Under the pieces are notes generated by a model. That model searched no databases and had not been told where the DNA came from. It worked only from the letters and a program-made list of their open reading frames with translations. From contig JAZPXN010000084.1 in the NCBI GenBank assembly GCA_045543655.1, positions 47,326-111,325 on the forward strand: a DNA stretch of 64,000 nt, in the 5' to 3' direction. Origin of the DNA: Eubacteriales bacterium (GTDB taxonomy: Bacteria; Bacillota; Clostridia; Oscillospirales; UBA644). Positions 2,353 through 20,346 of the stretch are shown piece by piece. Within the stretch, counting starts at the first letter, position 1; each line of letters begins with the position of its first letter. Both the position numbers and the translations under genes were made by a program.

Positions 2353-2363
2353 AAGGAGAACCC

Positions 2364-3243: not shown

Positions 3244-3249
3244 GAAGAT

Positions 3250-4137: not shown

Positions 4138-4175
4138 AATAATAAACCTCCGAATAAATTCGTAAAGAAGCAGGG

Positions 4176-5231: not shown

Positions 5232-5243
5232 AAAAACCTCCTG

Positions 5244-6338
5244 TCATTCGTCGATATCGGGGTCAAGCGTGCCGTAATAATCTTGGAATTCCTGATCCCG
5301 GTCAAAATGAAGGGGAGGAATCTTATCATCGTCGTCGATGGGCTGAAGAAGCGGGTCGGCAGGGTCGGCGTCGGTAGAGAAGGTAAACATCAGCATATTG
5401 AACGCCACGAGACCGACCAAAAGATAGATCCCGAAGGACGTAAAGATCTGCTTGAGAGCGACGGAATTTTTAAATTCCTGCCCGTCGGGATCTCTGCGGG
5501 GGAAGAAGAGAAAGAAGGCGGCGGCAACGCCCAGCACCAGACCCATAAAGATCAGATAATTTGCGTAGGCGAGGAAATTATCGTATTGCGCAAAGATCCA
5601 CCACAGAGAAACGGTAATCTGACTTGCGGCCTGCAGGACGATGCAGGACCAGACCGAGCGCACCCGCAGATAGAAAAAGCCGATGACAAAGCCGATGGCA
5701 AGGCGGACGACGAGAAGATAGGGCTCTCCGTCGCTCAAGGCGTAGGCAACGCCGGAGACCAAAACGGCGGCGATGCGGTTCTCCTCCCGCATACTGCGCA
5801 GAGCAATCCCCCGGTAGGCAATCTCGTAAGCGAAGGAGGAAAAGACGGCGGTGACGGCCACGTAAAAAATCGATTGGGCGGGGGTAGTACCGAAGGCGGG
5901 AACGGTGATGGCGGAATGCAATCCCTTCATTTCGGCAACGGACAGCAGAAGATCCGTCAAGCCCATAGCGCCAAGCGTCAGACCGGACACGGAAACCACG
6001 CCGATCAGCGTGCGAATGACCGGATGCTCCGATCGGGCCTCCTCCCGGAAAACGGGCATCAGAGGCTCCCGACTGACGCGCTGATAAGCAAAAAAGGGCA
6101 GGAACACCGCAAGGGCGTTGGCAAGAGCCGTCAGGGCGGCGGCGGGATAATAGGTCAGAGATCCGGCGGCAATGGAAGCAAGACCGCCCAACGCGAAGCG
6201 AAGAACCCAAACCGCCACGGTCAGGACGAAGATCCAGCAATACCGATCCCGGATCCGGGAACGGCGGGCCTGTTCCTCGATGGTAAGCTCTGTTTTCTGA
6301 CCCCTTTTGAAGAAGCTATTTTTCGGTTTATTTTCCAT
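5244..6338 (-). CDS. multi-pass membrane protein, CPBP/CAAX (Abi)-type intramembrane protease-like
   Basis: About 8 predicted TM helices and an EExxxR-like motif (FAYEIAYRGIALRS). Start placed at the internal ATG 6338 (MENKPKN...); the ORF-track start at 6464 adds an implausible AT-rich leader. Confidence 0.55.
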   Translation of the reverse strand: MENKPKNSFFKRGQKTELTIEEQARRSRIRDRYCWIFVLTVAVWVLRFALGGLASIAAGSLTYYPAAALTALANALAVFLPFFAYQRVSREPLMPVFREEARSEHPVIRTLIGVVSVSGLTLGAMGLTDLLLSVAEMKGLHSAITVPAFGTTPAQSIFYVAVTAVFSSFAYEIAYRGIALRSMREENRIAAVLVSGVAYALSDGEPYLLVVRLAIGFVIGFFYLRVRSVWSCIVLQAASQITVSLWWIFAQYDNFLAYANYLIFMGLVLGVAAAFFLFFPRRDPDGQEFKNSVALKQIFTSFGIYLLVGLVAFNMLMFTFSTDADPADPLLQPIDDDDKIPPLHFDRDQEFQDYYGTLDPDIDE

Positions 6339-6515
6339 AATAATAAAGCACACCTTTCTTATCTGAATACAGTATACCACACTTTGGGGAATTTTGCAAG
6401 AGGAAACGGAAATTTCATACAATTTCCCGGACGAAAAGAGGGAGTTTTCCACAAGATTATCCACTATTTTTCGAACAGATGTTTAAAATCATTCGAACAC
6501 ATGGGAGGAAAAACA

Positions 6516-6524
6516 TGGTATAAT
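6516..6524 (+). promoter_or_regulatory. extended -10 promoter element (TGgTATAAT) upstream of the phage-like cluster
   Basis: tggtataat at 6516-6524. No good -35 is visible. It is the only promoter-like element between the divergent CPBP gene and the terminase small subunit. Confidence 0.45.
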
Positions 6525-6574
6525 AGAACCACGGTAAGGGGAGAAAGCGAAGGCGGACGGGAAATCAGTGGCGT

Positions 6575-6949
6575 TTGCCGGGGACTTTTCCACCTGCCGA
6601 ATCAATGAAAGGAGGGACGGTTCTGAAGGAATACGGGACGCTGCGCGGCGAGATCATCCGACTGGCGCTGGAATATCTGAAGGACGTTCTGGAAGACAAT
6701 TCCGAGGACTACGGCGACTACCGGGTAGAAGACGGGGAGTTTCGCTTCTGTCCGAAGGACGGGACCCACATTCCGGCCGACCGGGTCAGCGAATGGAACG
6801 TATCCAAAAGCGGAGGCGGAAAAATCCGTTTTTTCGACAAGGCCGCGGCCATTGCGCTGGCGCGCTCCATCGGCGTATTTGATCTGCAGGAAAGCGAAGA
6901 AACGGAAGACCTGAGCGACGAGGCGCTCTTTGGCGATCCCGGGCCTTGA
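6575..6949 (+). CDS. terminase small subunit-like protein
   Basis: C-terminal KIRFFDKAAAIALARSIGVFD resembles the conserved Terminase_2 motif (K-I-x-x-x-D-K-x-x-A-L-x-x-L-x-x-x-x-G-x-F). Its stop overlaps the TerL start. The start is uncertain (TTG 6575 or ATG 6605). Confidence 0.6.
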   Translation: MPGTFPPAESMKGGTVLKEYGTLRGEIIRLALEYLKDVLEDNSEDYGDYRVEDGEFRFCPKDGTHIPADRVSEWNVSKSGGGKIRFFDKAAAIALARSIGVFDLQESEETEDLSDEALFGDPGP

Positions 6950-8277
6950 GCATGAAACGGAGAAAAACCATACCATGGAAATTTTCGGACAAGCAGAAGG
7001 AATACCTGACCCGCTGCAGGGACGCTACCTATAATTTTGCGGAAGGGGCGGTGCGGTCGGGGAAAACGGTCTGCAATATTCTGGCCTTTGCCCGGGCGTT
7101 AGAAGAATCGCCGGACAAGCTGCATCTTGCCACGGGGGTAACCATTGCGGCGGCGAAGCTGAATTTGGGAGACTGCAACGGATTCGGATTGGAGCACCTG
7201 TTCCGGGGGCGGTGTCGGTGGCAAAGATATCACGATAATCCGGCCTTATACGTAGAGACGAAGACGGGGCCGAAGCGGATCATTTTTGCAGGCGGAGGGA
7301 AATCCGACAGTTACAAGCGTATCCGCGGAAATTCCTACGGACTCTGGCTTGCCACGGAGGTCAACAAGCACCATATTGCCGACGACGACACCTGCTTTTT
7401 GCAGGAAGCCTTCAACCGGCAGCTGGCGGCAAAAAGACGGCAGGTCTTTTGGGATTTCAACCCCGACTACCCAAAGCATCCGGTCTACGTAAAATACGTA
7501 GACAAATTCCGGCGGGAGGGATTGAACGTAAATTATATGCACTTCACCATTTTTGATAATCCCACCGTAGGAAAAAAGCAATTGGAGAGCATTTTACGGC
7601 AATATCAGGAGGGAAGCGTCTGGTATCGCCGGTGGATTCTAGGCGAGCGCTGTGCGGCGGAGGGGCTGATTTTTCCGGCCTTTACGGAGCATCCGGAACG
7701 GTGGACGGTATCGGCGCCGCCCCGGGATATCGCCTTTCTCTCCGTGGGATGCGACTACGGAGGCACCGCATCCAGGACGGTCTTTACCGCCGTGGGAATC
7801 CGGGAGGACTTCCGGGGCGTATGCGTCGTGGACTGTAAGCGACTCCCCCAGGGAAAGGGGAAAATCACACCCGACGAGCTGGAGCGGGAATTTATTTCCT
7901 TTCTGTTCGGCCTGGAGAAAAAATTTCACCTTCGTCCGCGGTACGCCTTTATGGACTCGGAGGGGCAATACCTGACCAACGGAATCCGGTCGGCCTGCGC
8001 GGCGGCGGGGCTGGCGGTGGCGGTATGCGACTGCAAAAAGGTGACCATATCAGACCGCATTGCCTGCAAGATGCGGCTGATGAACGAAGGGCGCTGGAGC
8101 GTAATGGAGGGCTGTAAGGCCGTTATCGACTCCACTGCAGAGCTGGTCTGGGACACGAACGCTCCCGATCGCCGGCTGGATAACGGAACGACGGACGTGG
8201 ACACGGCGGATGCGGAGGAATACGCCTGGTCGGCCTGGATCAAACAGTTTTCCGCCCCTCCCAAAGAAAAGAGGTAA
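6946..8277 (+). CDS. terminase large subunit (PBSX/Terminase_3-like)
   Basis: Walker-A-like AEGAVRSGKTV near the N-terminus, typical length, and position after TerS. An ATG at 6952 is the likelier start. Confidence 0.85.
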   Translation: MSMKRRKTIPWKFSDKQKEYLTRCRDATYNFAEGAVRSGKTVCNILAFARALEESPDKLHLATGVTIAAAKLNLGDCNGFGLEHLFRGRCRWQRYHDNPALYVETKTGPKRIIFAGGGKSDSYKRIRGNSYGLWLATEVNKHHIADDDTCFLQEAFNRQLAAKRRQVFWDFNPDYPKHPVYVKYVDKFRREGLNVNYMHFTIFDNPTVGKKQLESILRQYQEGSVWYRRWILGERCAAEGLIFPAFTEHPERWTVSAPPRDIAFLSVGCDYGGTASRTVFTAVGIREDFRGVCVVDCKRLPQGKGKITPDELEREFISFLFGLEKKFHLRPRYAFMDSEGQYLTNGIRSACAAAGLAVAVCDCKKVTISDRIACKMRLMNEGRWSVMEGCKAVIDSTAELVWDTNAPDRRLDNGTTDVDTADAEEYAWSAWIKQFSAPPKEKR

Positions 8278-8280
8278 CGA

Positions 8281-9687
8281 ATGGAAACCATACTTTCCTA
8301 TCTGAAAGAGCGTTACGGCTACGACGGATGCGACCGAAGCTTTTACCGGACCGTGGATCTGTGGGATCGCTGGTATACGGGGAGCGAGACGGAATTTCAC
8401 CGCACCCGGGTCAACAACGGCCTTACGGTAACCGAGCGGGATCTTTCAAGAATGAACATGGCTAAAAAGGTAGCCGAAGACTGGGCAAACCTTTTGCTGA
8501 ATGAAAAAACCGGGATCGACGTGGACGATCCAAACGCCGGCATTTTCCTTCAGGGGGAAGACCGGAGGGGCGGCGTTCTGGGGGAAAACGATTTCTGGAC
8601 CCGGATCAATCAATTGACCGAATCCGCCTTTGCGCTGGGGACGGGAGCCGTGGTGATCCGCATGGAAGAAATGCGGGCTGATACCGACGGAAGAATCCTG
8701 CCCTCCCCCGAAGGGAGGATCCGCCTGGAATACGTGACCGCCCCCAACATCATCCCTCTGTCCTGGCAGGGAAGCCGGGTGACCGAGGCGGCCTTTGCGG
8801 GGAATATTACCCTGCTTGGGAAGAGAACTACCTATCTGCAGATCCACCGGAAGGAGGCGGACGGATACGTAATCGACAGCGTTTGCTTCGATCCGGCCAC
8901 GGGGCGAAGAGTACCTCTCCCCTCCTCGGTCTGCGAGCGGGTACGGACGGGAATGCAGACCCCGTGGTTCGTTCTGATCCGACCGAACATCGTCAATAAT
9001 CTGACCGATCTGCCGATGGGAATGTCGGTCTACGGAAATTCTCTGGATATTCTGAAAGGGCTGGATCTCTGCTACGACAGCTTCAACATGGAATTCTATC
9101 TGGGCAAAAAAATGGTATTTTTGCGCAAGGATCTGATGATGCAGGACCGGGACGGTCAGTTGTACGCACCTCAGGACTGCAACCGACAGCTGTTCATGTA
9201 CGTGGGAGACAAGAACGTAGACGGAGATTTGCTGCCCCAGGAATTCAATCCGGCGCTGCGGGTGGAGGACCACGTAAAGGCCATCCAGCAGCAGTTGAAT
9301 TATCTCTCCTGCAAGTGCGGCTTCGGGGATCGGCATTACCGTTTTGACCAGGCAAACCGCCCTGCCACGGCGACGGAGGTGATCTCCTCGGACGCGGCCC
9401 TCTACCGCTCGGTACGCAAGCACGAGATCTTGCTGGAGCAGCCTCTGATCGGGCTGATGCGGGCGATTCTGCAGATCGGACGGGAGATTCTGGGGATCGG
9501 AATGAAGGAAGACCCCAAAATCGGCGTTCGCTTCGAGGACAGTATCATCGAAGATCGCTCCGCAGAGCAAAAGAGAGACGGTGAGCTGGTCTCTCTGGGG
9601 ATTCTGGCCGATTGGGAATTCCGGATGAAATATTTCGGAGAGACCGAAGAGGTCGCCCGGAAGAAATGCAAGGAGAATCAAAAATGA
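8281..9687 (+). CDS. phage portal protein (SPP1 Gp6-like)
   Basis: The N-terminal pattern WDRWYTGSETEFHRTRVNNG...RMNMAKKVAEDWANLLLNEK is typical of SPP1/A118-type portals. Length is 468 aa. Confidence 0.85.
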   Translation: METILSYLKERYGYDGCDRSFYRTVDLWDRWYTGSETEFHRTRVNNGLTVTERDLSRMNMAKKVAEDWANLLLNEKTGIDVDDPNAGIFLQGEDRRGGVLGENDFWTRINQLTESAFALGTGAVVIRMEEMRADTDGRILPSPEGRIRLEYVTAPNIIPLSWQGSRVTEAAFAGNITLLGKRTTYLQIHRKEADGYVIDSVCFDPATGRRVPLPSSVCERVRTGMQTPWFVLIRPNIVNNLTDLPMGMSVYGNSLDILKGLDLCYDSFNMEFYLGKKMVFLRKDLMMQDRDGQLYAPQDCNRQLFMYVGDKNVDGDLLPQEFNPALRVEDHVKAIQQQLNYLSCKCGFGDRHYRFDQANRPATATEVISSDAALYRSVRKHEILLEQPLIGLMRAILQIGREILGIGMKEDPKIGVRFEDSIIEDRSAEQKRDGELVSLGILADWEFRMKYFGETEEVARKKCKENQK

Positions 9688-10088
9688 GCGATGAAACGAT
9701 AAAAAACGAGCCTTTGACCGTGGAAGAGATCACGGCACGTCTCCCCGAGGGATACGCTTTGGTGGAAAAAGACGGCTGGATCCCCCGGGAGGAGGCAGAG
9801 GCCCGGCTTGCGTCGGCGGCCTTTGACCGCACGGTGGATCTGGAGTTGACCCGCCGCGGAGCAAAAAGTCTGACGGCGGCCCGGGCGTTGCTGGATCTGA
9901 ATCAACTGCGCCAATCCCCCGACGGGATCGGAGGCGCGGTGGATCAGATCCGAAAAGAAAACGACTGGCTTTTTCAGAATCAATCCACCTTTTCCAGCGG
10001 AGCGGTTCTGACGCCCCGCCGAACGGTGGACACAGAAAACATGAGTGATGCGGAATATTACGCATACAGAAAACAGATGAAAGGATAA
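9684..10088 (+). CDS. phage scaffolding protein (GP20-like)
   Basis: ATGA overlap with the portal stop. GP20-like motifs GAKSLTAARALLDLNQL and IRKENDWLF. Sits directly before the capsid gene. Confidence 0.7.
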   Translation: MSDETIKNEPLTVEEITARLPEGYALVEKDGWIPREEAEARLASAAFDRTVDLELTRRGAKSLTAARALLDLNQLRQSPDGIGGAVDQIRKENDWLFQNQSTFSSGAVLTPRRTVDTENMSDAEYYAYRKQMKG

Positions 10089-10097
10089 CCAACGACT

Positions 10098-11177
10098 ATG
10101 AATCATTTTTTGACTACTAAGACCATTGCCAGAGAGGCTCTGCCCATTCTGGAAGCAAACCTCGTCTTCCCTGCCCTGATCCACAGTGATTATTCCGGAG
10201 ATTTTTCCAAGCAGGGAGACACCGTTCAGATCCGCAAGCCTCCCGTCTACAACGCCAACGAATTTGACGGTGAGATCGATATTCAGGATATCAACGAAGG
10301 CGAGGTCCTGGTGAAGCTGGACAAAATCGCCGACGTTTCCGTGGAGCTGACCGCCAAGGAAATGGCTCTGAGCGCAGAGGATTTCACCAAGCAGGTCATC
10401 GCCCCCGCCATGGTTGCCATTGCCGAAAAGATCAACGCCGACGGTCTTGCGCTTTACAAGGACGTCGCAAACGTCTACGGGGAATCCGGCAAAACGCCCG
10501 CCTCCCTCGCAGATCTTGCAGGCGGCGCTAAGGTACTGAACGACAACAAGGCTCCTCTCGTGGGCCGGGGCGGCGTGTGGAACACCGACGCTATCGCCAA
10601 TTTCCAAGTCCTTCCCGCCCTGGTAAATGCAGAAAAGTGCGGTTCTACCGACGCTCTGCGGGAGGGCTCCATCGGCCGGGTCTTCGGCGTGGATCATTAT
10701 TTCTCCCAGCAGGTTCCCAACCACGTCAGCGGACAGACCTCCGGGAATGCTACGGTGTCCATCGTTCTCTCCGATCACGAGATCGAGCTGATGGGGATCG
10801 AAGGCGAGATGAACCGCGGGGATCTTCTGGAGATCGGCGGAAAGACCTATACCGTCACCGAAGACTGCAACGGGGACTCCGGTACGATGAACGTAAAAAT
10901 CTACCCCGCCGTGAGCGGTGATATCGTGGGCGCCTCCGTCGTCCTCCTGGGCGATCACGCCGCCAACCTGATGTTTCAGAAGAACGCTTTCGGCTTCGTG
11001 ACCCGTCCCCTGGAGGTGGCAAGAGGTGCGGACAGCTACGTCACCTCTTACAACGGTCTTTCCGTCCGTGTAACCATGGACTACAACATTGCCACCAAGA
11101 AGCAGACCCTGTCCGTTGATACGCTGTACGGCTTCAAGACCCTCTATCCCGAGCTGGCGGTACGCGTCCTCGGCTGA
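10098..11177 (+). CDS. major capsid protein (P22-coat-like family)
   Basis: The N-terminus TKTIAREALPILEANLVFPALIHSDYSGDFSKQGDTVQIRKP matches the P22 coat/XkdG-type capsid signature. Length is 359 aa. Confidence 0.8.
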   Translation: MNHFLTTKTIAREALPILEANLVFPALIHSDYSGDFSKQGDTVQIRKPPVYNANEFDGEIDIQDINEGEVLVKLDKIADVSVELTAKEMALSAEDFTKQVIAPAMVAIAEKINADGLALYKDVANVYGESGKTPASLADLAGGAKVLNDNKAPLVGRGGVWNTDAIANFQVLPALVNAEKCGSTDALREGSIGRVFGVDHYFSQQVPNHVSGQTSGNATVSIVLSDHEIELMGIEGEMNRGDLLEIGGKTYTVTEDCNGDSGTMNVKIYPAVSGDIVGASVVLLGDHAANLMFQKNAFGFVTRPLEVARGADSYVTSYNGLSVRVTMDYNIATKKQTLSVDTLYGFKTLYPELAVRVLG

Positions 11178-11201
11178 TCCGAAGGACGTCAGACCGAAAG
11201 A

Positions 11202-11228
11202 CCCGCATCCTCCTTTTGAGGATGCGGG
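11202..11228 (+). promoter_or_regulatory. GC-rich hairpin immediately after the capsid gene (no U-tract)
   Basis: cccgcatcctc-ctttt-gaggatgcggg. It covers the first two candidate starts of the next ORF. Confidence 0.5.
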
Positions 11229-11611
11229 GGAAGGAGGGAAATGAATTGAAACCGATCACGAAAGAAGAATTTGCCGCCCGCTATCCGTCGGAGGAGCTTA
11301 CGGCCACGTCGGAGGAAGAATTTGCCGGAATGGCGGCGACGGCGGCAGACCTGACCGACGTGCTCTGCTTCGGTCGGGCAAGCCGGGATGAAGCAGCAGC
11401 AGGACGGGCCATGGTCGAAATGATCCGTTATTGGATCGAGCGGGGCGGATATTCCGCGGCGACCCGGGCCTGCGGCATTGAACGGGAGGCGGTAGGAAAC
11501 TATTCGGTCTCTTATACCGATCGGGACACCGTTACGCTCCACGGGCTTGCAGTCGCTCCGGCGGCACTGATCATCCTCGACCGGGCGGGCCTCCGAAACC
11601 GGAACGTATAA
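11216..11611 (+). CDS. phage head-tail connector/adaptor-like protein
   Basis: Position after the capsid gene. GIEREAVGNYSVSY resembles the gp6/YqbG-type connector motif. The likely real start is TTG 11246, 8 nt after GGAGGG. Confidence 0.5.
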   Translation: MRMRGKEGNELKPITKEEFAARYPSEELTATSEEEFAGMAATAADLTDVLCFGRASRDEAAAGRAMVEMIRYWIERGGYSAATRACGIEREAVGNYSVSYTDRDTVTLHGLAVAPAALIILDRAGLRNRNV

Positions 11612-11621
11612 GGAGGTGCCC

Positions 11622-11987
11622 ATGACCGTAACGATTTTTAACCGTCTCGGAGAAGACGAGGAGGGAAACGCACGCTACAAGGCCTGCGTATTCCGCAACG
11701 TTTATATTGAAACGAAGGTGGCGGCAAATCCGGTCTATTCCGGAGAACGAAACAACAACAATTTCCGCCTGTATCTGTTTACAGAACGGGGATATCTGCC
11801 CCGGGAGGATTTTCTGAGAAATCCCGAAGGTCACTGGACGCTGCATCCGGGGGATCTTTTGACAACCGGGATCCACGAGATCCCGCCGGAGAATCCCTAC
11901 CGTATCAATACGATAAACGTTTTTTATGCAAAAGAAAAATTCCACCACTGGGAGGTGAGCGGCCGTGGCCAACTGCTGGAATCGTGA
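11622..11987 (+). CDS. phage head-tail joining/minor capsid-like protein
   Basis: AGGAGG SD 5 nt upstream of ATG 11622. Small ORF in the connector block. No specific motif recognised. Confidence 0.45.
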   Translation: MTVTIFNRLGEDEEGNARYKACVFRNVYIETKVAANPVYSGERNNNNFRLYLFTERGYLPREDFLRNPEGHWTLHPGDLLTTGIHEIPPENPYRINTINVFYAKEKFHHWEVSGRGQLLES

Positions 11988-12393
11988 TTGCCGACAAACG
12001 GTGATCGATTTTTTATCTCCGGTCACGGGGCCCATTGCCACCGAATACCTGAGTAACCAAGACGGGAGCGTCTCCCTCGAGGAGCTGCGGGGAGAGCCGA
12101 ATCTGATCCCCTTCGTGGACGGCGGACGGATTGCCCGTTACGATTTCAATCTCTGCGTTCGAACCCACGGCCGGGATACGGCGGCGCGGAAAAAGGCCAT
12201 TGACACCCTGATGGCCGCGGCGGGGCGATGCGCAGAAATACGCCCCTTTATGGGAGGATATATCGAAATGACCGAATTTCCCTTCCTGTTCAACCGAAAC
12301 ATGTCCGGAAACGAGGAATATAAGGCCGGATTTTCCATGTTTTTTCGGGTGGACAGCGCCGGAAATCCTCTTTATCCCCCGGTGGCGGAATAA
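11965..12393 (+). CDS. phage structural protein (connector/tail-completion position)
   Basis: GTG start with a GGGAGG SD. Overlaps the previous ORF by 23 nt. The call rests on synteny only. Confidence 0.4.
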   Translation: MANCWNRDCRQTVIDFLSPVTGPIATEYLSNQDGSVSLEELRGEPNLIPFVDGGRIARYDFNLCVRTHGRDTAARKKAIDTLMAAAGRCAEIRPFMGGYIEMTEFPFLFNRNMSGNEEYKAGFSMFFRVDSAGNPLYPPVAE

Positions 12394-12405
12394 AGGAGGA
12401 ATCGC

Positions 12406-12867
12406 ATGATTGAAAAAAGCAGTCTCCGGGTCTGGATCTCCGACGGAGAATCGGAGAAATATTCCCTGATAGGGCCGGGCATTACCAGCATTACGGAGAC
12501 CTACAAGGCCGCCATTTTAGAGACGCCGAACATCAATTCTGCCGTCAGCGGACAGGAAATTCTGTACCACGTGGGGCAGATTGAATTTTCGGGCATCTGG
12601 GTGGATGACGACGCCCTTGACATTCTGACAAGGAAAAGGGGGAAACGGGGCAAGGACGCCCTGGTCACGCTGATACTCATCTACTCCCACGAAAACTACG
12701 GACCGGACAGTACCTTTGCCGTAGCCCGGAAGGTAAGGGGGTACGTCTGCCTTGAAAATCCGGGGTCGAGAGAAAGTCCCTTCGGAGCAAGGATCAAAGG
12801 AAAAATTATTTTTGCGGGAGAACCGCAGCAAGGAGTATTCGATGAAGCAAGAGGCATTTTCGGATGA
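12406..12867 (+). CDS. candidate major tail (tube) protein
   Basis: 153-aa ORF immediately before the tail-chaperone-like gene. Assigned by position only. Confidence 0.35.
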   Translation: MIEKSSLRVWISDGESEKYSLIGPGITSITETYKAAILETPNINSAVSGQEILYHVGQIEFSGIWVDDDALDILTRKRGKRGKDALVTLILIYSHENYGPDSTFAVARKVRGYVCLENPGSRESPFGARIKGKIIFAGEPQQGVFDEARGIFG

Positions 12868-13234
12868 GGTTAAGGTGGATATCCACGGAACGCCGACCCC
12901 GATCCGCTGGAATTTTACGGCGGCGCTCCGATTTATGGATTACGTAGACCGCTCGACGGACGACGACGAAACCTTTCTGGATACGGTGTTGAACATCTGG
13001 TATCCCGAGATTCCGGAGGACCGGGACCTTGCCCTGACCCGCGCCATTGAATTCTATTGCGGCGGAACCGCCCCGGGGGAAGGATATTACAGTCCCGTTT
13101 TCACCCCCGGCAGCGAAGAAACGATCCGGGAAGCCTTTTTGGAGCGGTACGGCATTGATCTGTATCGGGACGACGTTCATTGGTGGACCTTTCGCCGGCT
13201 TCTTCGACAGATCAGAAGGGAGGCAACGACGTGA
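12842..13234 (+). CDS. phage Gp15-like tail assembly chaperone-position protein
   Basis: AAGGAG SD. C-terminal DDVHWWTFRRLL resembles the Phage_Gp15 family signature. In siphophages this gene normally precedes the tape measure gene. Confidence 0.55.
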   Translation: MKQEAFSDEVKVDIHGTPTPIRWNFTAALRFMDYVDRSTDDDETFLDTVLNIWYPEIPEDRDLALTRAIEFYCGGTAPGEGYYSPVFTPGSEETIREAFLERYGIDLYRDDVHWWTFRRLLRQIRREATT

Positions 13235-13374
13235 ACGAAACCAAAACGACCCATGAGAATAACGGCGATAACGGCACGGTAATCGTTTTTCGCCCCGAAC
13301 CGGAGGACGAAACCGACCGCATCGGCCGGGAGATCGTGCGGAGAATGATCGAAGCGGGGGTGATTGAGGGATGA
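13231..13374 (+). CDS. 47-aa acidic ORF in the -1 frame of the chaperone gene (gpT-like extension or tape-measure relic)
   Basis: GTG start overlapping the upstream stop (GTGA), with an AAGGGAGG SD 7 nt upstream. Its stop overlaps the next ATG (ATGA). Confidence 0.4.
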   Translation: MNETKTTHENNGDNGTVIVFRPEPEDETDRIGREIVRRMIEAGVIEG

Positions 13375-14423
13375 TCAATCTGGCCATCAACGGGACGGAC
13401 TACGGAATCTATCTGGAGAACGGCTCCATGACCGTCCGGCAGTACGGAGCCCTGCGATCCTCCTTCCGCGCGACCCTGCATATTACGGACACCATCTATC
13501 CCGTTCCCGAGGCGGGGCAGGAGGTACAGGTTTTTGAGGACGGAAATTACGTCTGGGGCGGGATTCTGGTGGAGACGGAGCAGATCTGTCACAGCACGAA
13601 ATGTGCAACCATTCATCTGAGGGGACAGGGTTACGAGCATCTGCTGCAGCGGTACTGTCTGCCGGGATTCACCCTGGCGACCCAGACCCCATCCGACGCA
13701 ATGGATACCATTTTCCACAACTATATCAGCCCGGAAGATCATATTCTTCTGGGCACTCGGGCACCGGGGATCCCGATCGCAAAGGCCTATTCCTTCCCGC
13801 CCATGAAGGCGTCCGCCGTCTACGACCAGCTGGCGGCGGAAAACGGATTCGTCTGGTGGATTGACGGATGGAAGACCCTGTATATTCAACCGAACATCCC
13901 CCAAAGCACCCCGCCCTTCTGCATTGATCTTACGCAGAATGCGGAAAACCGCCTGAAGGATCTGCAATCCCTGGAATACCGGACGTCCACGGCAAACTAC
14001 AAAAACATGGTCTACGTATACAATCCCGGAAACGGCGTGGAGGCGCCGGTCTATTCTAACGAACTGCAGAAACAGATGATGGGCAGATACGGCAGTGCCT
14101 GGTACGGCGTTGGAATCAAAAATTCCACCGTGCAATCCTGGAACGACGCGGTGACCGTAGGAAATCAGATCCTGGCCACCTCTCCGGGCTTCGGGGAAAT
14201 CCGATTTTCCACCGATGAAAAGGGCTTCAAGCTGGGACAGATCCTGGACGTAAGAGCCCCTATCTGCGGAATGATCACGAAAAAAACCTACTGTATCACG
14301 GAAATACGGTCGGTCTATTTTTCCGACCGCTTCCGTTATACGGTCACCGCCCGGGAATCCTTTGACGGAACGCTGGCCATCAAATCCTGGGAAGCCCTGC
14401 TGGCGGCAGGAAAAAGCAATTGA
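13371..14423 (+). CDS. phage tail protein (distal-tail/Dit- or XkdQ-like by position and size)
   Basis: 350-aa ORF translationally coupled to the chaperone module. The N-terminal beta-rich pattern MINLAINGTDYGIYLENGSMTV is reminiscent of Sipho_tail/XkdQ proteins. Weak call. Confidence 0.4.
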   Translation: MINLAINGTDYGIYLENGSMTVRQYGALRSSFRATLHITDTIYPVPEAGQEVQVFEDGNYVWGGILVETEQICHSTKCATIHLRGQGYEHLLQRYCLPGFTLATQTPSDAMDTIFHNYISPEDHILLGTRAPGIPIAKAYSFPPMKASAVYDQLAAENGFVWWIDGWKTLYIQPNIPQSTPPFCIDLTQNAENRLKDLQSLEYRTSTANYKNMVYVYNPGNGVEAPVYSNELQKQMMGRYGSAWYGVGIKNSTVQSWNDAVTVGNQILATSPGFGEIRFSTDEKGFKLGQILDVRAPICGMITKKTYCITEIRSVYFSDRFRYTVTARESFDGTLAIKSWEALLAAGKSN

Positions 14424-14439
14424 AACGAGGTGAATACCT

Positions 14440-15024
14440 ATGATCGTCAAACGACGTCTTCCCTTCCGGCATTCCCGGGAGGGCTACGCGCCGGATCGGA
14501 TCCATCTCCGGTTTTGCCAGACTTCGGCAGATGAAACCGAAAGGGAACTGATCCGCACGCAAAAAACGGCCCATTATCATCTGTCATCCAACGGTACGGT
14601 GACGGACTTTGCGCCCCTTTCCGCGGCGGCGAACCGTTTGAGCCCCTTGTTTCCGGAGGGGATGGCGGAGGTCTCTCCCGCCCGACGGGGGATCCTGATC
14701 CTGATTGAGGGCAAAGAACTGAACCGGGAGCAGAAACAGCCCCTGATCCGGTTGCTGAAGGGGATCCAGAAAGAGGTCTTCCGGATCTACGGATTCCCCT
14801 TTCCCTTCCGGCGGGACGCGTTTTTCGCCGAAGGAGGCCTTCCCGTGGAAGAATTGCTGGAGGAAGGCTATCTGCCCCGGGAGGACCGAAAGCTATACCG
14901 GGTGCAGACCGGGTGCTACCGATCCCGAAGAGAAGCGGAAGAGCGGATCGAGGGATTGAGCACCGCCGGGATTGCCGCATATATCACGGAGATCAACTAC
15001 GGCAGCGTACCGTTAGGAGAATAA
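14440..15024 (+). CDS. amidase_2-like (apparently degenerate) domain + C-terminal SPOR domain protein
   Basis: SPOR-like KLYRVQTGCYRSRREAEERIEGLSTAGIAAYITEI. The N-terminal half aligns by eye with PGRP/T7-lysozyme-type amidases (AHYHLSSNGTVTDF), but the expected His/Cys zinc ligands are not present. Confidence 0.5.
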   Translation: MIVKRRLPFRHSREGYAPDRIHLRFCQTSADETERELIRTQKTAHYHLSSNGTVTDFAPLSAAANRLSPLFPEGMAEVSPARRGILILIEGKELNREQKQPLIRLLKGIQKEVFRIYGFPFPFRRDAFFAEGGLPVEELLEEGYLPREDRKLYRVQTGCYRSRREAEERIEGLSTAGIAAYITEINYGSVPLGE

Positions 15025-15037
15025 AGGCGGTGAAACT

Positions 15038-15298
15038 ATGTGGGAATCGGTCATAGCCGCGGCGGCGGTGGTCAGCGGGATCACGGTGCTTGGAACTGCG
15101 GCGGTAAAGATCGTAAAATTCTGGCTGGATCAGAAGAATCAGGACAGGGAGATCGAGCACGTCAAAACCGAAATGGGCGTGATCTGCTACGGCGTTCTCG
15201 CCTGTCTGGACGGACTGAAGCAAATGGGCTGCGACGGAAACGTGACCCAGGCGAAAAACGATCTGGAAAAATATCTGAACAAATCGGCTCACAAATAA
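15038..15298 (+). CDS. small single-TM protein of the lysis cassette (holin-associated)
   Basis: N-terminal TM helix (VIAAAAVVSGITVLGTAAV) followed by a charged coiled region. Sits directly upstream of the holin and endolysin. Confidence 0.5.
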   Translation: MWESVIAAAAVVSGITVLGTAAVKIVKFWLDQKNQDREIEHVKTEMGVICYGVLACLDGLKQMGCDGNVTQAKNDLEKYLNKSAHK

Positions 15299-15313
15299 GA
15301 AAGGAGCGATCCT

Positions 15314-15526
15314 ATGAAAGAATGGCTTTACCGAGCCTTGCGGACCTTCGGCCAGGCGATGCTCGGTTATCTGGCGGCCAATCTGCTGGCGACGGTGACC
15401 CAGGCTGACGTCAGCGATCCGACGGGCTTTGCCAATACGCTGCTGGCGCTGTTTGCGGCGGCGGTGGCGGCAGGCCTTGCGGCGGTCATGAACTGGAACA
15501 AAGGAGGAGAACACGGTGAAGAATAA
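15314..15526 (+). CDS. holin (r1t/phi-LC3-like)
   Basis: The RALRTFGQAMLGYLAANL opening and two TM helices are typical of r1t-type holins. Overlaps the endolysin start. Confidence 0.65.
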   Translation: MKEWLYRALRTFGQAMLGYLAANLLATVTQADVSDPTGFANTLLALFAAAVAAGLAAVMNWNKGGEHGEE

Positions 15527-16274
15527 AGAATTCGTTGAAAAACTCAGGGAAATCGCCCAAAATTACAAGACCGTCTATATGAGAGGAACCTTCGGCGCAC
15601 CGCTGACCCAGAGTCTGATCACCCAGAAGGTGAAGCAGTATCCGAAAAACTATTCGGCGGGACGGCAGAGCTTGCTGAAGGGTAAGATCGGAGACGGGCT
15701 CTGGGCCTTTGACTGCGTAGGGCTGATCAAGGGGATTCTGTGGGGCTGGAGGGGCGACCGGAGCGTCTCCTTCGGCGGCGCGAAATACCGCGCAAACGGC
15801 GTTCCCGACATCAACGCAGATTCCATGGGCAAAAAATGCCTGGAGCAGAGCGACGATATGGCTCACATCCTGCCCGGAGAGGCGGTCTGTATGAAGGGGC
15901 ATATCGGCGTATACGTGGGAGACGGCAAGGTGGTGGAATCTACTCTGACGGGAAAATACGACGGGGTTGCGATCACCGATCTTTCCTACCGAAACTGGCT
16001 TTTCCACGGCAAGCTGCCCTGGATCGAATACGAAGAAGCACCGGTCGAAGCGCCGGAAGAAGCGCCCCGTACCCCGCAGGTGGGGGATATCGTCCGGTTT
16101 TCCGGCGGGAAGCATTACATTTCGTCCACGGGAAATCTGGGGTACAAGGCAAAGGCAGGCCCCGCAAAAGTGACCCGTTATCTGCCGGGACGAAAGCATC
16201 CCTATCACCTGGTGCATATCGACAAAACCTCCAACGTATACGGCTGGGTGGACGAAAATACGGTCTCTTTTTGA
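15516..16274 (+). CDS. endolysin: NlpC/P60-type cysteine peptidase + C-terminal SH3-like binding domain
   Basis: Catalytic-type motifs FDCVGLIKG (Cys) and GHIGVYVGDG (His), an EAP-rich linker, then an SH3-like tail (GDIVRFSGGKHY...YGWVDENTV). Confidence 0.75.
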   Translation: MKNKEFVEKLREIAQNYKTVYMRGTFGAPLTQSLITQKVKQYPKNYSAGRQSLLKGKIGDGLWAFDCVGLIKGILWGWRGDRSVSFGGAKYRANGVPDINADSMGKKCLEQSDDMAHILPGEAVCMKGHIGVYVGDGKVVESTLTGKYDGVAITDLSYRNWLFHGKLPWIEYEEAPVEAPEEAPRTPQVGDIVRFSGGKHYISSTGNLGYKAKAGPAKVTRYLPGRKHPYHLVHIDKTSNVYGWVDENTVSF

Positions 16275-16305
16275 GGGAATCTGCGAAAAAAGTGGTTCCG
16301 TCGGG

Positions 16306-16334
16306 TTGACATTATAAAGAAAAGCGTGTATAAT
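16306..16334 (+). promoter_or_regulatory. sigma-70-type promoter (TTGACA-17-TATAAT)
   Basis: Perfect hexamers with a 17-nt spacer, 25 nt upstream of the ATG at 16360. Confidence 0.65.
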
Positions 16335-16359
16335 AACCTTATACCAAGGAGGATTTTCG

Positions 16360-16869
16360 ATGGAATATACTGTCATCCGCTCCCGGCGGAAAACCATATC
16401 CATGGAAGTGCGGCCCGATCTGACCGTAGTGGTACGGGCGCCCCTGCACATGACGAAAGACAAGATCGAAGCCTTCGTCCGGAATAACCGGGAATGGCTG
16501 AAGGGGGCTGTGGCCCGGACGGCGGCCCGCTCCGGCAAGGAAGCCGCCATCGACACCCGGGAACGGGAATTACGGGCGGCGGCGAAGGCATATCTGCCCG
16601 GTCGCACGGCCTATTGGGCGAAGATCATGGGGGTAACGCCTACCGGAGTAAAGATCACCTCGGCCCGGGGGCGCTTTGGCTCCTGCAGCGGAAAGAACAG
16701 CATTTGCTATTCCTGGCGGCTGATGGCCTATCCTCAGGAGGCGGTGGACTACGTGGTGGTTCACGAGCTGGCCCATATTCTGCAAAAGAATCATTCCGCC
16801 CGGTTTTACGCCGTGGTGGAGCGGTACCTGCCCGACTGGCGGGAGCGTCAGCGGATGCTGAAAAAATAA
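16360..16869 (+). CDS. DUF45/YgjP-like (M48-type) zinc metallopeptidase
   Basis: HExxH motif in VVHELAHILQKNHSARF. Size and layout are typical of YgjP. Confidence 0.8.
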   Translation: MEYTVIRSRRKTISMEVRPDLTVVVRAPLHMTKDKIEAFVRNNREWLKGAVARTAARSGKEAAIDTRERELRAAAKAYLPGRTAYWAKIMGVTPTGVKITSARGRFGSCSGKNSICYSWRLMAYPQEAVDYVVVHELAHILQKNHSARFYAVVERYLPDWRERQRMLKK

Positions 16870-16877
16870 AAAAATCA

Positions 16878-16918
16878 CCGGCAGATCTGCAAGATACGAC
16901 AGATCTGCCGGTTTTTTT
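16878..16918. terminator. bidirectional intrinsic terminator
   Basis: ccggcagatctg / cagatctgccgg stem flanked by A7 and T7 tracts, between convergent genes. Confidence 0.8.
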
Positions 16919-16924
16919 GCGGCT

Positions 16925-18688
16925 TTAGCGGGTTTTGGCGGCGATGGAATCGGCCAATTCCCGGAGTTTCCTCTTGGTTTCCGGAGGGATCGCCCGACGG
17001 ACGTCCTGCCGGACGAGATAATACCACATAGACTTCTTTTCGGGGAGATTGAACTCCTCCACCATAACGGGATAGATCATCTTTTCCGCATCGAAGGCGA
17101 TGGCGACCTCGTTGAGCACGTGCTTGGACTCGGCGGCACGGGGCGTTAAGACCACGATAAAGATCTCCGTCTTCCCAAGGGCGTCCATGATGGCGTCGGC
17201 ATAGGCGCAGGAGCCACGGTATTCCTTCACGTCAGCCTCGCAATACCAAGGCTTCAGCCCCCGTTTTTCCAATTCCTTGGCCAGATACCGGACGATCAGC
17301 CCGTCGCCGGTATTATAGCTGATAAAGACCCGATCGGACTCCGGAGAAGTCTGCACGGTCTCCCGGTGATAAAGGGAAATATCTTCAAAGAGACTTTCGT
17401 CGCTGATCTTATTTTCCGCAAATAAGGCACGGTCTTCCTCCAGCTTGACCAGGCGCTGGCGGTAGACCGGCTGATCCGGATCCTCGTCCCTTTTCGCCCG
17501 ATATTTATCCATAAAATACTGCAGGGCGTTGCCGGTGAAATCGTAGTCCACGTCCAGCTGAGCGCCGTAGGTGATCTTTTTCCGCTGGGCGTACAGAAGG
17601 GAGGCGATGCCCAGCAAGATCCCTTCGATCATCTGGGAAGAGCCTCTGCCGAGGAAGGGCAGGGAGAAGGACGCGCCAAGGCCGGAAAATTCCCCCATCA
17701 GAGCAAAGAAGGTGGTGAGGGCAAAATAGACGGCGATGCTGAAGATGACGTAGCGGGCGTAGGTATTCTTCACCTTTGACGACATCCGGAAGAGGCGGTA
17801 AATCAAAAAGATCTCCGCGGCCAAAAGGAGCAGGAAAAAGATCCAGCCGTAGTTCATAATTCCGGTAACCGTGGGATAGTAACCGGAATTGGCCAGCCAT
17901 TCCACGGCGGAGGAGCCGTTGACGGTGGCGTCGGAAGCACCGATAACTCGGCTTTCGCCCAGCGCCGCCCGTACCACCCGGGGGAAGAAGCCCATGCCGT
18001 TGGGGTCGTCCATCCCACCGGACAGAAGCATCTGCAGACGATCCTGCATCCGGTCGGAAAACAGGAACGATCCGAAATATCCCAGAACGAACAAACCCGA
18101 AAGCCCCACGGGGAACAGCCAGGAAATATGAAGGCGCTTTTCGATCTTTCCCTTATAAAGAAGGGCAAGAAACACGAAGAAGACGACCACCACGATCCGG
18201 TAGTTGGAGATCATGGCGGCGGCACCTAACTCCACGAGAAGCATCAGACTGATAAGAAATACCGTACCGATGCGAATCTCCTGCTTTCGGCTGATGAGAT
18301 AAGACACGGGAAGCACCGAAAACATCAGAAGCTTGGCGGGCTCCAGTACCATGCTGCCAAGGCGGACGTAGTAGCCGTAGGTAGGAAGAAAATTGCAAAG
18401 GACGAGGAACAGCACGGTAACCACGTAAATGGGGATGGAGACCTTGATGAGAAGATCCGCCGAAAGACGGTTGATCACGAGCCAGCAGAGCAGAGCCAAA
18501 AGCAGAAACAACACGCCCCGGGCAAGGTAGGATTGCCGCAATTCCGGCACCGTCTCCTGCACGACGGCAAGGAAAACGGAATAGACCGCCAGCAGGATGA
18601 TGGGGGCGATCTCTTTTTTCTTCCGGAGCATTCCGTAAGCAAGAACGGCCAAAACGAAAAGGCCGAGGCAGATAAAGGTTGGGATCAT
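16925..18688 (-). CDS. SEDS (FtsW/RodA/SpoVE)-like polytopic membrane domain fused to a C-terminal TIR domain
   Basis: The first ~375 aa have ~10 TM helices with SEDS-like motifs (VLEPAKLLMF; DPNGMGFFPRVVRAALGESRVIG; SLPFLGRGSSQMIEGILLGI). The C-terminal ~135 aa are TIR_2-like (RVFISYNTGDG...IFIVVLTPRAAESKHVLNEVAIAF). Confidence 0.7.
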   Translation of the reverse strand: MIPTFICLGLFVLAVLAYGMLRKKKEIAPIILLAVYSVFLAVVQETVPELRQSYLARGVLFLLLALLCWLVINRLSADLLIKVSIPIYVVTVLFLVLCNFLPTYGYYVRLGSMVLEPAKLLMFSVLPVSYLISRKQEIRIGTVFLISLMLLVELGAAAMISNYRIVVVVFFVFLALLYKGKIEKRLHISWLFPVGLSGLFVLGYFGSFLFSDRMQDRLQMLLSGGMDDPNGMGFFPRVVRAALGESRVIGASDATVNGSSAVEWLANSGYYPTVTGIMNYGWIFFLLLLAAEIFLIYRLFRMSSKVKNTYARYVIFSIAVYFALTTFFALMGEFSGLGASFSLPFLGRGSSQMIEGILLGIASLLYAQRKKITYGAQLDVDYDFTGNALQYFMDKYRAKRDEDPDQPVYRQRLVKLEEDRALFAENKISDESLFEDISLYHRETVQTSPESDRVFISYNTGDGLIVRYLAKELEKRGLKPWYCEADVKEYRGSCAYADAIMDALGKTEIFIVVLTPRAAESKHVLNEVAIAFDAEKMIYPVMVEEFNLPEKKSMWYYLVRQDVRRAIPPETKRKLRELADSIAAKTR

Positions 18689-18708
18689 AAAGAAAAACTC
18701 CCGTCAGA

Positions 18709-18747
18709 CAGAATAGAAACCGAGGCACCCGTGGGAGAGTGCCTCGC
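18709..18747 (-). terminator. intrinsic terminator after the SBP gene
   Basis: On the minus strand: cgaggcac-tctcccacgg-gtgcctcg followed by gtttctatt. It ends ~20 nt before the SEDS-TIR ATG. Confidence 0.55.
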
Positions 18748-18762
18748 AAAAGCTTCAGAGGA

Positions 18763-20283
18763 TCAATCGAAATAGCCGGCGGCCTGCCATTGATTCAAGG
18801 TAACCTTATTGGGAAGCACGTGCTCCTCGATCAGATCGTCCACGGTGACGGCACCGCGGTCAATGAGGGCGGAGACGGAAGAGGCCGTCATAAGCCGGGA
18901 GTTGATCATGGAATAGATCTCATCCACGCCGTTGGGCCAATAAGAATACTGAAGGGAGGCGCCGTCGCGAATGAGGTATTCCACGTCCAGATCGGTCTCG
19001 AAATAATTCTCACGGTAGTACTTCATGACGTCCTCGTAGGATTCGATGCCGTCAAGTCCTTCAAAGAGATCGTACATCAAAAATGCGGAATGCTCCACGT
19101 TCTGAGCAAAGACGGGGATGGCAACGGAGCAAACGTCCTCGTAGAAGCCGGTGACCATGTTGGGATCGGAGCCGGCCCACAGAGTCACGCCGAAGGAGAA
19201 GGGTGCGCCGGTAACGATCTCGTCAAACAATCCCTTGGGACGGGTAGAGCACATGGCGCACAGACCGTCCAGGAAAGGCTCGTGACCGAACCAGGGACCC
19301 CAGGGGCTTTCGGGCTGGCCGTTGTTGAAATAACGCTGATTGGTCTTGATGCTGTTGACCAACCACTGAAGGGCTTCTTTGGCCTCCGGGGTGAGCAGGC
19401 CGTTGGTCCATTCCACGCTTCCGTCGGCGTTGACCTTATCCACGGTCACCAGATCGATACCGGTGGCAAGGAAGCTGGCGCGGGTCATATGCTGGACCCG
19501 GGCGGTCAGCCCCCAGACCGTCTCGGAGCCGGAATCGTCGTAGCAGGAGGTAATGACGTCCAGCATGGCGTCCCGGTCCCAGGCCTCGTTTTCCCAGTAT
19601 TCCTGGGGATCGGTGGCGTCGAACTGAACGAGCATATCCTTGTTATAGGCAAAAAGATAATAGGGCAGGGGGGTATAATCCAACCACAGAGCGGGGGTGA
19701 CGCCGTAGAAGGTACCGCCGGCCATCATGGCCTCCCGGGCGGTGATGTTGCCCCATTTCTCCATATCCCAGAAGTTGATGATATGATCCACCTGCAGAAG
19801 ATCCTGCATCAGCGACTCGGAGCCGCCGGTGCCGCAGGTGCGGCGCAGCTTATCGTTGATATCGGCGAAGATCAGGTCCCCGGCATTGTCGGAATAAATG
19901 CGGGACTGCATGGCGTTGACGAATTTATCCTCCGCCACCTGCTCAAATTCCAAAAGGCAGCCGTACAGCTCCTGCACCTCCAGAATCCGCTCGGCAACCT
20001 TTTCGCCCATACGGGAATCCTGGGAATATTTAAAGGGGTTGTCCACTTCCTGGAACTGAATGACGACGTACGTATTTCCCTCAGTATCGCCGGTAGGGCG
20101 GTCGGGAAGAACGAAGGATTCCACCTTATCCTGAATGCCGCCGTCGTTGCCTCCCTCGGGATTCGAAGCATCCCCCTTCCCCTCAGAATCGGTGATGGGT
20201 TCGGAACCGGGGGTACAAGCCGCAAGGGCAAGCACCATCAGCAACGCAAGGATCAAAGAAAGACTTCTGCGCAAGAGTTTCAT
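18763..20283 (-). CDS. extracellular solute-binding lipoprotein (ABC-type sugar-binding-like), no adjacent permeases
   Basis: Lipoprotein signal and lipobox (LILALLMVLALAAC), a Ser/Asp/Gly linker, then a ~450-aa SBP-like body. Confidence 0.75.
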   Translation of the reverse strand: MKLLRRSLSLILALLMVLALAACTPGSEPITDSEGKGDASNPEGGNDGGIQDKVESFVLPDRPTGDTEGNTYVVIQFQEVDNPFKYSQDSRMGEKVAERILEVQELYGCLLEFEQVAEDKFVNAMQSRIYSDNAGDLIFADINDKLRRTCGTGGSESLMQDLLQVDHIINFWDMEKWGNITAREAMMAGGTFYGVTPALWLDYTPLPYYLFAYNKDMLVQFDATDPQEYWENEAWDRDAMLDVITSCYDDSGSETVWGLTARVQHMTRASFLATGIDLVTVDKVNADGSVEWTNGLLTPEAKEALQWLVNSIKTNQRYFNNGQPESPWGPWFGHEPFLDGLCAMCSTRPKGLFDEIVTGAPFSFGVTLWAGSDPNMVTGFYEDVCSVAIPVFAQNVEHSAFLMYDLFEGLDGIESYEDVMKYYRENYFETDLDVEYLIRDGASLQYSYWPNGVDEIYSMINSRLMTASSVSALIDRGAVTVDDLIEEHVLPNKVTLNQWQAAGYFD

Positions 20284-20317: not shown

Positions 20318-20346
20318 ATTATAACACATCTGACAGGAAAAGTCAA
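20318..20346 (-). promoter_or_regulatory. sigma-70-type promoter (TTGACT-17-TATAAT) for the SBP gene
   Basis: Read on the minus strand: cTTGACTtttcctgtcagatgtgtTATAATg, ~35 nt upstream of the ATG at 20283. Confidence 0.6.

Follow-up and report, generated by a model that had tools for sequence, protein, structure and literature searches.

We analyzed a 64,000-nucleotide stretch of contig JAZPXN010000084.1 (assembly GCA_045543655.1, Eubacteriales bacterium), hereafter the window, and concentrated on one of its genes, which encodes a membrane domain related to the SEDS proteins RodA and FtsW fused to a TIR domain. The gene lies on the minus strand at 16925–18688 and forms a complete open reading frame (ORF) of 587 amino acids (aa), stop codon included, in one uninterrupted frame. 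The initial annotation of this stretch, made from the letters of the sequence, had reported a single 587-aa ORF; this is confirmed, and all of the peptides that it quoted are present in the translation. The ATG start is also kept in a homologue at 38% identity (P0002), and a ribosome-binding site, read from the sequence as GGGAG, lies 9 nt 5′ of the ATG (18698–18702). From its N-terminus, the protein comprises an extra transmembrane (TM) helix, TM0 (aa 2–20, 18629–18685), a catalytically degenerate SEDS-fold domain of 10 TM helices (aa 27–367, 17588–18610), a juxtamembrane segment (aa 368–385, 17534–17587), a charged linker predicted to be cytoplasmic (aa 386–450, 17339–17533), and a TIR_2 domain with a family-specific C-terminal extension (aa 451–587, 16928–17338). 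These features, and all others given below for the gene and its flanking signals, are on the minus strand. Both domains had been placed correctly in the initial annotation, which lacked TM0 and the connection of around 80 residues (aa 368–450) between the SEDS and TIR domains. It is very probable that this architecture, taken as a whole, joins a dead SEDS domain to a competent cytoplasmic TIR domain.

The relationship to SEDS proteins is weak for the single sequence and decisive when family profiles and the fold are considered. Alone, the window protein had no match to Pfam PF01098 at E<10, and it matched the NCBIfam ftsW and rodA models over the full model length with E~2e-7 and 30 bits, against a cutoff of ~337. 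A profile of three family sequences matched E. coli RodA (8tj3_B) end to end (E=3.9e-5), and a 25-sequence profile of the N-terminal domain matched E. coli FtsW and RodA end to end (82.8 and 79.3 bits, respectively). In a second, word-indexed homology search, the family profile also retrieved the canonical SEDS protein P0163 from among 5.8e9 sequences (E=7e-21), as the lone addition. Two family members, P0003 and P0006, have precomputed PF01098 matches. This profile evidence demonstrates homology to SEDS proteins, not membership of the curated family. Thus, of the two Pfam models named in the initial annotation, TIR_2 recognizes its domain directly, PF01098 by itself does not, and the SEDS assignment is borne out through the profiles of relatives.

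We used AlphaFold2 to model the protein from the 25-sequence alignment (predicted local distance difference test score of 84.5, predicted template modeling score of 0.76). The seven best matches of the model in the PDB, from six entries, were all RodA or FtsW chains (Foldseek probability of 1.00, target TM-scores of 0.71–0.80), with TIR domains ranking next. We also considered a glycosyltransferase of the GT-C type, such as WaaL and the O-antigen ligases, and rejected it, given a TM-score of 0.51 compared to 0.71–0.80 for SEDS proteins and profiles that match SEDS proteins only. The membrane domain had no significant match in the BFVD viral fold library. Since the profiles of the relatives and the top PDB matches both lead to RodA and FtsW, with WaaL far behind, profiles and model together indicate that the membrane domain is truly homologous to SEDS proteins; it is no generic polytopic domain.

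The alignment to RodA begins only at aa ~27–30, so the helix at aa 2–20 represents an extra TM segment, absent from RodA and FtsW. The model helices and a positive-inside analysis likewise delimit TM0, which brings the number of TM helices to 11 and is followed by a cytoplasmic RKKK loop. Across the family, the density of Lys plus Arg is 22% in the predicted cytoplasmic loops versus 6% in the predicted extracellular loops. Because this distribution agrees with the topology of SEDS proteins, the linker and the TIR domain are predicted to lie in the cytoplasm, where nicotinamide adenine dinucleotide (NAD+) is found.

Next, we assigned the catalytic columns by aligning E. coli RodA and FtsW onto the family model with hmmalign. 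The column of the catalytic Asp262 of E. coli RodA, within the HTDFIF motif, holds Tyr270 in the window protein (codon at 17879–17881) and is acidic in only 2 of the 25 fusion members. The columns of E114 and K117 in the QPSEIAK motif (QPSE..K) are unconserved in all members, and that of D159 in the QPDLG motif is mostly Asn, or variable. By alignment and topology, the lost HTDFIF motif belongs to the large extracellular loop 4 (ECL4, aa 211–271, 17876–18058), where the DPxGxGF/Y motif is kept. The retained motifs are those related to the fold, namely the DPxGxGY that opens ECL4, a Gly or Gly-Trp after ECL4, and LPF..G before the last helix. In RodA, the D262A substitution abolishes polymerase activity (PMC6207328), and D262 is the residue modeled as catalytic in the report of the RodA-PBP2 structure (PMC10449877). 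Judged from these columns, the SEDS domain has lost the residues needed for glycan polymerization throughout the family, in agreement with the initial annotation, in which the essential Asp was noted as gone and the polymerase as apparently dead.

We then compared conservation between regions, calculated as the mean BLOSUM sum-of-pairs score over the 25-member alignment. The pooled extracellular loops of the fusions score 0.39 and the pooled cytoplasmic loops 1.28, whereas in canonical SEDS proteins, a control of three sequences over the same columns, the extracellular loops score 2.25 and the cytoplasmic loops 0.58, a large contrast. ECL2 (0.26), ECL3 (0.15) and ECL4 (0.52) are the least conserved regions of the fusions, and intracellular loop 4 (ICL4, 2.46), the TIR core (1.77), the juxtamembrane segment (1.26) and ICL3 (1.12) are the most conserved. 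ICL4 (aa 306–312, VKNTYAR, 17753–17773) has the top conservation score within the membrane domain and includes the nearly invariant Asn308. The juxtamembrane segment carries a family-specific LDVDYD motif, in which Asp379 is nearly invariant in the family alignment, while the linker that follows, predicted by the model to form three helices, varies in length and sequence across the family. Among members that share 19–39% identity, the invariant residues are G281 in the membrane domain and F455, S457, W481, S521 and E527 in the TIR domain. The scores indicate that purifying selection is now mainly on the cytoplasmic loops, the LDVDYD motif and the TIR domain, and that constraint has moved to these regions from the extracellular loops, where it lies in canonical SEDS proteins.

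In the C-terminal domain, TIR_2 (PF13676) matches residues 454–557 with E=3e-14 and 54 bits, above the gathering cutoff of 28, as the initial annotation had anticipated, and the TIR domains of the relatives likewise match above threshold. Foldseek matches include the TIR domains of SNC1, RUN1, SARM1, SPARTA, MyD88 and a B. cereus protein (probability of 1.00). The best matches among solved structures for a TIR-only profile, built from 19 family members, were CRISPR-associated Cat1 (9e-12), TIR-STING (7e-10) and AbTIR (4e-9), each a proven NADase. The Glu previously noted at the usual catalytic position is Glu527 (codon at 17108–17110). All 25 members have this putative catalytic residue, which falls in the alignments on the catalytic Glu of Cat1 (WCWDE), TIR-STING (WSKFE) and AbTIR (WTNYE); the window protein has H-x-x-x-E instead of the usual W-x-x-x-E. 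From its sequence, the family TIR keeps every hallmark of the NAD+-cleaving TIR domains and looks catalytically competent. The same TIR subfamily, with its C-terminal extension of the form YYLxRQ...PP, is also found in tandem arrays, for example with five matched stretches in P0015 (780 aa), in P0025 and P0026, and with up to seven in proteins of more than 2000 aa. TIR domains of this subfamily also occur with quite different N-terminal modules.

To explore the extent of the family, we scanned 1.84 billion cluster representatives (clusters at 50% identity) exhaustively with HMMER and obtained 25 matches at E<=1e-30. By inspection of the list, at least 27 representatives have the full membrane-plus-TIR architecture, two of these with an additional N-terminal domain of ~230 residues. 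Their clusters are mostly singletons, and all of the representatives derive from metagenomes or metagenome-assembled genomes (MAGs) of Clostridia/Eubacteriales. Genome, metagenome and viral collections were scanned with a pattern from an 8-sequence alignment. Because this pattern consists mostly of the TIR motif, the genome and metagenome scans gave mainly TIR-only proteins and two full-length fusions, these being found in 2 of 185,579 species-representative genomes, both Eubacteriales MAGs. None of the sources searched had a name for any fusion protein, and the SEDS-TIR combination was not found described in the literature searched, which fits the earlier impression of an unrecognized architecture. 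Fusions of sensors to TIR domains are themselves known; it is the use of a SEDS-fold pseudo-enzyme as the membrane module that is undescribed in anything we searched.

The neighborhoods of the fusion genes vary greatly between loci. The gene is flanked by a glycoside hydrolase and capsule-regulation genes in L001, adjoins a GH20 gene and the gene for arginyl-tRNA synthetase (ArgRS) in L019, adjoins an energy-coupling factor transporter and a bile-salt-hydrolase-type gene in L006, and lies beside a TetR regulator in L021. Its neighbors in L007 are FtsK-like ATPases and VWA, kinase and tubulin-like genes, and those in L017 encode a soluble protein with two TIR domains, a Ser/Thr kinase and a PP2C phosphatase. 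In L020 it follows the gene for a TIR protein belonging to the same subfamily and precedes three Metallophos genes. The L007 region (2689–19956) encodes two FtsK/HerA-type ATPases, a VWA protein, a Ser/Thr kinase and a 1203-aa Tubulin_2 protein, and L017 (513–6033) encodes the kinase, the PP2C and several unknown genes. These two gene sets are typical of poorly characterized conflict or regulatory islands. Immediately upstream of the fusion, the L017 two-TIR protein (6187–7947) has 586 aa with a TIR domain at each end, and the L020 protein (3149–4240) has 363 aa with the TIR domain at its C-terminus. The latter scores 155.8 bits over the TIR domain and 156.3 bits over the whole protein against the family model. 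Kinase, FtsK-like and Metallophos neighbors gave only generic, domain-level matches in PADLOC (for the L007 and L017 gene sets, mad6, mad8 and PD-T4-6).

No conserved neighbor was found, and an all-versus-all BLAST of ten loci shared only the fusion proteins, so the fusion gene behaves as a stand-alone accessory module. Among the neighbors examined (the window, L001, L006, L007 and L017–L021) there is no penicillin-binding protein (PBP) or transpeptidase gene, and such partners may lie elsewhere. Thus, the survey suggested in the initial annotation shows a fusion that recurs in at least 27 clusters and, as to a location in defense islands, two or three loci that look conflict-related and a majority that do not.

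We compared the fusion to SEDS proteins, to known TIR effectors and to receptors. Relative to RodA, FtsW and SpoVE (PF01098), it shares a homologous 10-TM fold (TM-scores of 0.71–0.80, 79–83 bits with the family profile), the DPxGxGY motif, the Gly after ECL4, the LP...G before TM10 and the N-in/C-in topology of the core. It differs in lacking the catalytic Asp, QPSE..K and QPD, in its unconserved extracellular loops, its extra N-terminal TM helix and its cytoplasmic TIR domain, in the absence of an adjoining class B PBP gene, and in the scores of the window protein below the Pfam and NCBIfam thresholds.

TIR activity gated by oligomerization is established for TIR-STING, Cat1, SARM1 and AbTIR, and solved filament or assembly structures of oligomerizing TIR proteins appear among the structure and profile matches of the fusion. 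TIR-STING, Cat1, TIR-SAVED and SARM1 resemble it in having a sensor fused in cis to the TIR domain, with NADase activity switched on when the sensor drives assembly, and Cat1 and TIR-STING are its closest TIR sequence matches among solved structures. In TIR-STING-type fusions, however, soluble sensors recognize cyclic nucleotides that a partner enzyme produces, whereas the putative sensor here is a pseudo-enzyme embedded in the membrane, with no gene for a signal-producing partner nearby.

Single-protein TIR NADases (the AbTIR type, the single-gene TIR systems of E. coli, and SpbK) share with the fusion a TIR_2-type domain, the FISx and WY motifs, the catalytic Glu and the lack of a partner, and by analogy the expected output would be NAD+ cleavage leading to abortive infection. 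They lack a SEDS fold or any other polytopic membrane domain derived from an enzyme. Single-protein TIR systems, some of them with TM segments, protect E. coli from phages in a manner that requires the TIR active site (PMC11350192), and B. subtilis SpbK is a single-protein TIR defense protein (PMC12847820). The metazoan Toll-like and IL-1 receptors are similar by analogy only, in that a module facing away from the cytoplasm is joined through a membrane span to a TIR domain in the cytoplasm. Toll-like receptors differ by having a single TM helix, leucine-rich repeat or immunoglobulin ectodomains, and scaffold TIR domains without the catalytic Glu. Thoeris shares a bacterial-type TIR domain, with weak similarity to the ThsB models (ThsB_TIR, 13.8 bits against a cutoff of 21.2; PADLOC ThsB, E=1e-3). 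We rejected membership of Thoeris, because ThsB is below its cutoff and no SIR2, SLOG, Macro or TM-containing ThsA gene is near any locus. The initial annotation had likewise seen no ThsA-like partner for the window gene, which proves to have no other conserved partner either.

We propose, with a probability of roughly 45% for the combination as a whole, that the fusion is a self-contained, polytopic inner-membrane TIR protein in which the pseudo-SEDS domain acts as sensor or anchor, the TIR domain is an NADase and the outcome is one of biological conflict. The pseudo-SEDS domain would serve as an envelope-facing sensor, as a dock on the cell-wall synthesis machinery, or both, or would bind lipid-linked precursors. 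A perturbation, for instance when phages attack the envelope or wall synthesis is blocked, would alter its conformation or cluster it within the membrane, and ICL4 and the juxtamembrane linker would relay this change so as to bring TIR domains together. For known TIR NADases, activity depends on self-association. The assembled TIR domains would then deplete NAD+ and cause growth arrest or cell death, as in abortive infection or a similar conflict outcome, and no partner gene would be needed. We count the varied genomic contexts as the behavior of an accessory gene, in particular the TIR neighbors in L017 and L020, the kinase, PP2C, VWA, FtsK-like and tubulin-like genes in L007 and L017, and the phage-like cluster in the window. 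The odds of a specifically anti-phage or abortive-infection role are close to even.

Several observations weigh against this proposal. The usual Trp of the WxxxE motif is replaced by His in most family members, and certain TIR domains act as scaffolds and not as enzymes. Most neighborhoods consist of housekeeping or carbohydrate-metabolism genes and are not defense islands. PADLOC gave only weak matches at the level of the TIR domain (16–23 bits) and no full-length match to a system protein, the fusion protein had no match in PHROGs, and no family members were found on IMG/VR viral contigs with the 8-sequence pattern. Moreover, the pseudo-SEDS module also occurs without a TIR domain, either alone or with TPR or DUF1292 domains, and may therefore have a physiological function of its own, unrelated to immunity.

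The TIR-less relatives were recovered by the same HMMER scan. They comprise stand-alone forms of ~395 aa with acidic tails, the TPR fusions P0039 and P0052, the DUF1292 fusion P0043, and further clade members including P0056 and P0067, with loci L022–L024. Their motifs are degenerate in the same manner, with Asp at the D262 column in only 3 of 18; P0039 keeps this Asp and passes the PF01098 threshold. In a neighbor-joining tree, the TIR-less relatives group with the TIR fusions as one clade that a long branch separates from canonical SEDS proteins, and the TIR forms appear basal or paraphyletic, which in such a crude tree, with no support values, is a hint only. In L024, Metallophos and DUF1292 genes come after a stand-alone pseudo-SEDS gene, and the DUF1292 encoded there shares 41% identity with that of the P0043 fusion.

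These relatives bring forward the alternative that the whole pseudo-SEDS clade is physiological, forming a regulatory or scaffolding subunit of the clostridial cell-wall or sporulation machinery that binds, for example, lipid II or a class B PBP. In that case the TIR domain, like TPR and DUF1292, would be a cytoplasmic interaction or signaling module, with a possible part in regulating NAD-derived signals or developmental cell death. The single clade with shared degenerate motifs and other tails (TPR, DUF1292 or acidic) in place of a TIR domain fits such a role, as do the Rosetta-stone link between the DUF1292 neighbor of L024 and P0043 and the many loci with housekeeping or glycan genes (GH20, GH123-like, capsule Wzz/CpsD/CpsB and ArgRS). 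However, core envelope machinery is not typically distributed so sparsely and patchily (2 of 185,579 species representatives), and a PBP or cell-wall synthesis gene is never a conserved neighbor. The invariant catalytic Glu also favors an enzymatic over a scaffolding use of the TIR domain, and additional TIR proteins adjoin the fusion in L017 and L020. We consider a purely physiological envelope role to be unlikely.

Alternatively, the membrane domain could be a decayed SEDS relic that simply tethers and pre-concentrates the TIR domain, with a cytoplasmic cue, such as a phage protein in the manner of SpbK and YonE, sensed by the linker or by the TIR domain itself. Conservation within the protein is lowest in the extracellular loops, the long, helical and variable linker would suit a diversifying recognition surface, and TIR proteins of the same subfamily carry other N-terminal modules, all of which is consistent with a mere tether. 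Yet a simple anchor needs neither 10–11 helices in a recognizable SEDS fold at 19–39% identity nor the kept DPxGxG, GW and LPF..G motifs and the strongly conserved ICL3 and ICL4, and this makes an anchor-only function quite unlikely.

The immediate surroundings of the gene in the window raise a further alternative. Directly 3′ of the stop codon is a strong intrinsic terminator (16877–16912), identified by sequence scan as a 14-bp stem with a T-run, which is shared with a convergent gene for a YgjP-like metallopeptidase (PF01863; 16360–16869, plus strand). The latter gene, which is also conserved in L002, separates the fusion gene from the endolysin of a compact, 'head-only' phage-like cluster of ~9.7 kb (6575–16274), the lysis cassette of which ends 650 bp from the fusion gene. 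The cluster comprises a small ORF, genes for the large terminase, portal, scaffold, major capsid and connectors including a Gp15-like protein, and genes for a 350-aa unknown protein and a SPOR-domain protein, along with two holin-like ORFs and an endolysin of the NlpC/P60 type. Integrase, replication, tail-tube and tape-measure genes are absent from the cluster. Host genes lie directly to its left (FtsX permease, DUF218, SDR and CAAX protease), and the fusion gene is itself preceded by a lipoprotein gene and ordinary metabolic genes. The cluster could be an element like a gene transfer agent, a capsid-forming satellite or a decayed prophage. A megablast of window positions 1–20000 against a phage genome collection gave no match, and a search for attachment-site direct repeats bracketing the cluster gave only short repeats at chance level.

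The fusion gene might thus be a 'moron', a cargo gene of the adjacent phage-like element that provides this element with superinfection exclusion. Its position, with only the YgjP-like gene between it and the lysis cassette, is the same in L002 and L003. These copies are, however, 98% identical and therefore of the same lineage, not independent. No other member adjoins phage genes and none was found on IMG/VR contigs; the region also lacks bracketing attachment-site repeats and has a uniform GC content. Phage adjacency is consequently lineage-specific and not a trait of the family, so the placement beside a phage-like cluster that was noted initially is correct for the window and does not extend to the family as a whole, and a role as phage cargo is very unlikely.

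Finally, it is extremely improbable that the SEDS domain remains an active glycosyltransferase, polymerizing lipid II or another undecaprenyl-linked glycan through non-canonical residues under TIR regulation or reporting, since against the kept overall fold and DPxGxGY, the few clade members with Asp at the D262 column (such as P0039) and one homologue near capsule and glycan genes stand the lack of a conserved acidic residue at or around this column, the lost equivalents of E114, K117 and D159, the poor conservation of the extracellular face that is the most conserved in canonical SEDS proteins, and the inactivation of RodA by D262A alone (PMC6207328).

On its 5′ side, the fusion gene is separated by a 74-bp gap from a gene in the same orientation (18763–20283, minus strand), which encodes a predicted lipoprotein of 506 aa with a signal peptide and a Cys lipobox, and with no Pfam match at E<0.01. 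Consensus scans of the upstream region found a weak terminator-like hairpin between the two genes (18721–18746), no sigma-70-like promoter within the gap, and a sole promoter-like site upstream of both genes (20318–20346). Given the lack of a promoter in the gap, the fusion gene may be read through from this distant site, and since the site is the only one present, the lipoprotein gene may be co-transcribed with the fusion gene.

Within the proposal of a self-contained membrane TIR protein, we also considered a more specific form, which we rate as somewhat unlikely. Here the protein would be a transmembrane TIR receptor derived from a decommissioned peptidoglycan polymerase, which binds lipid II or the PBP machinery, reports perturbation of the wall and switches on the NADase. 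Phage lysis proteins, injection machinery or antibiotics would provide the cues, relayed through ICL4 and LDVDYD. Sensor-fused TIR effectors are a recurring design in immunity, and to our knowledge the known sensors of bacterial TIR proteins are soluble nucleotide- or protein-binding modules. A receptor of this type would, if true, be the first case of a polytopic envelope sensor that derives from an enzyme and is directly coupled to a TIR effector, and a prokaryotic functional analog of Toll-like receptor signaling.

As far as our searches show, the fusion would contain the first documented SEDS pseudo-enzyme, which raises the question of what non-catalytic SEDS folds bind, for example lipid II or PBPs. 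Public sources carry no annotation for the clade in any of its forms (TIR, TPR, DUF1292 or stand-alone), and the TIR fusion offers a compact, testable single-gene system. Were the receptor form of the proposal to hold, it would mean that bacteria watch the envelope or the wall-synthesis machinery itself and convert this information into depletion of NAD+.

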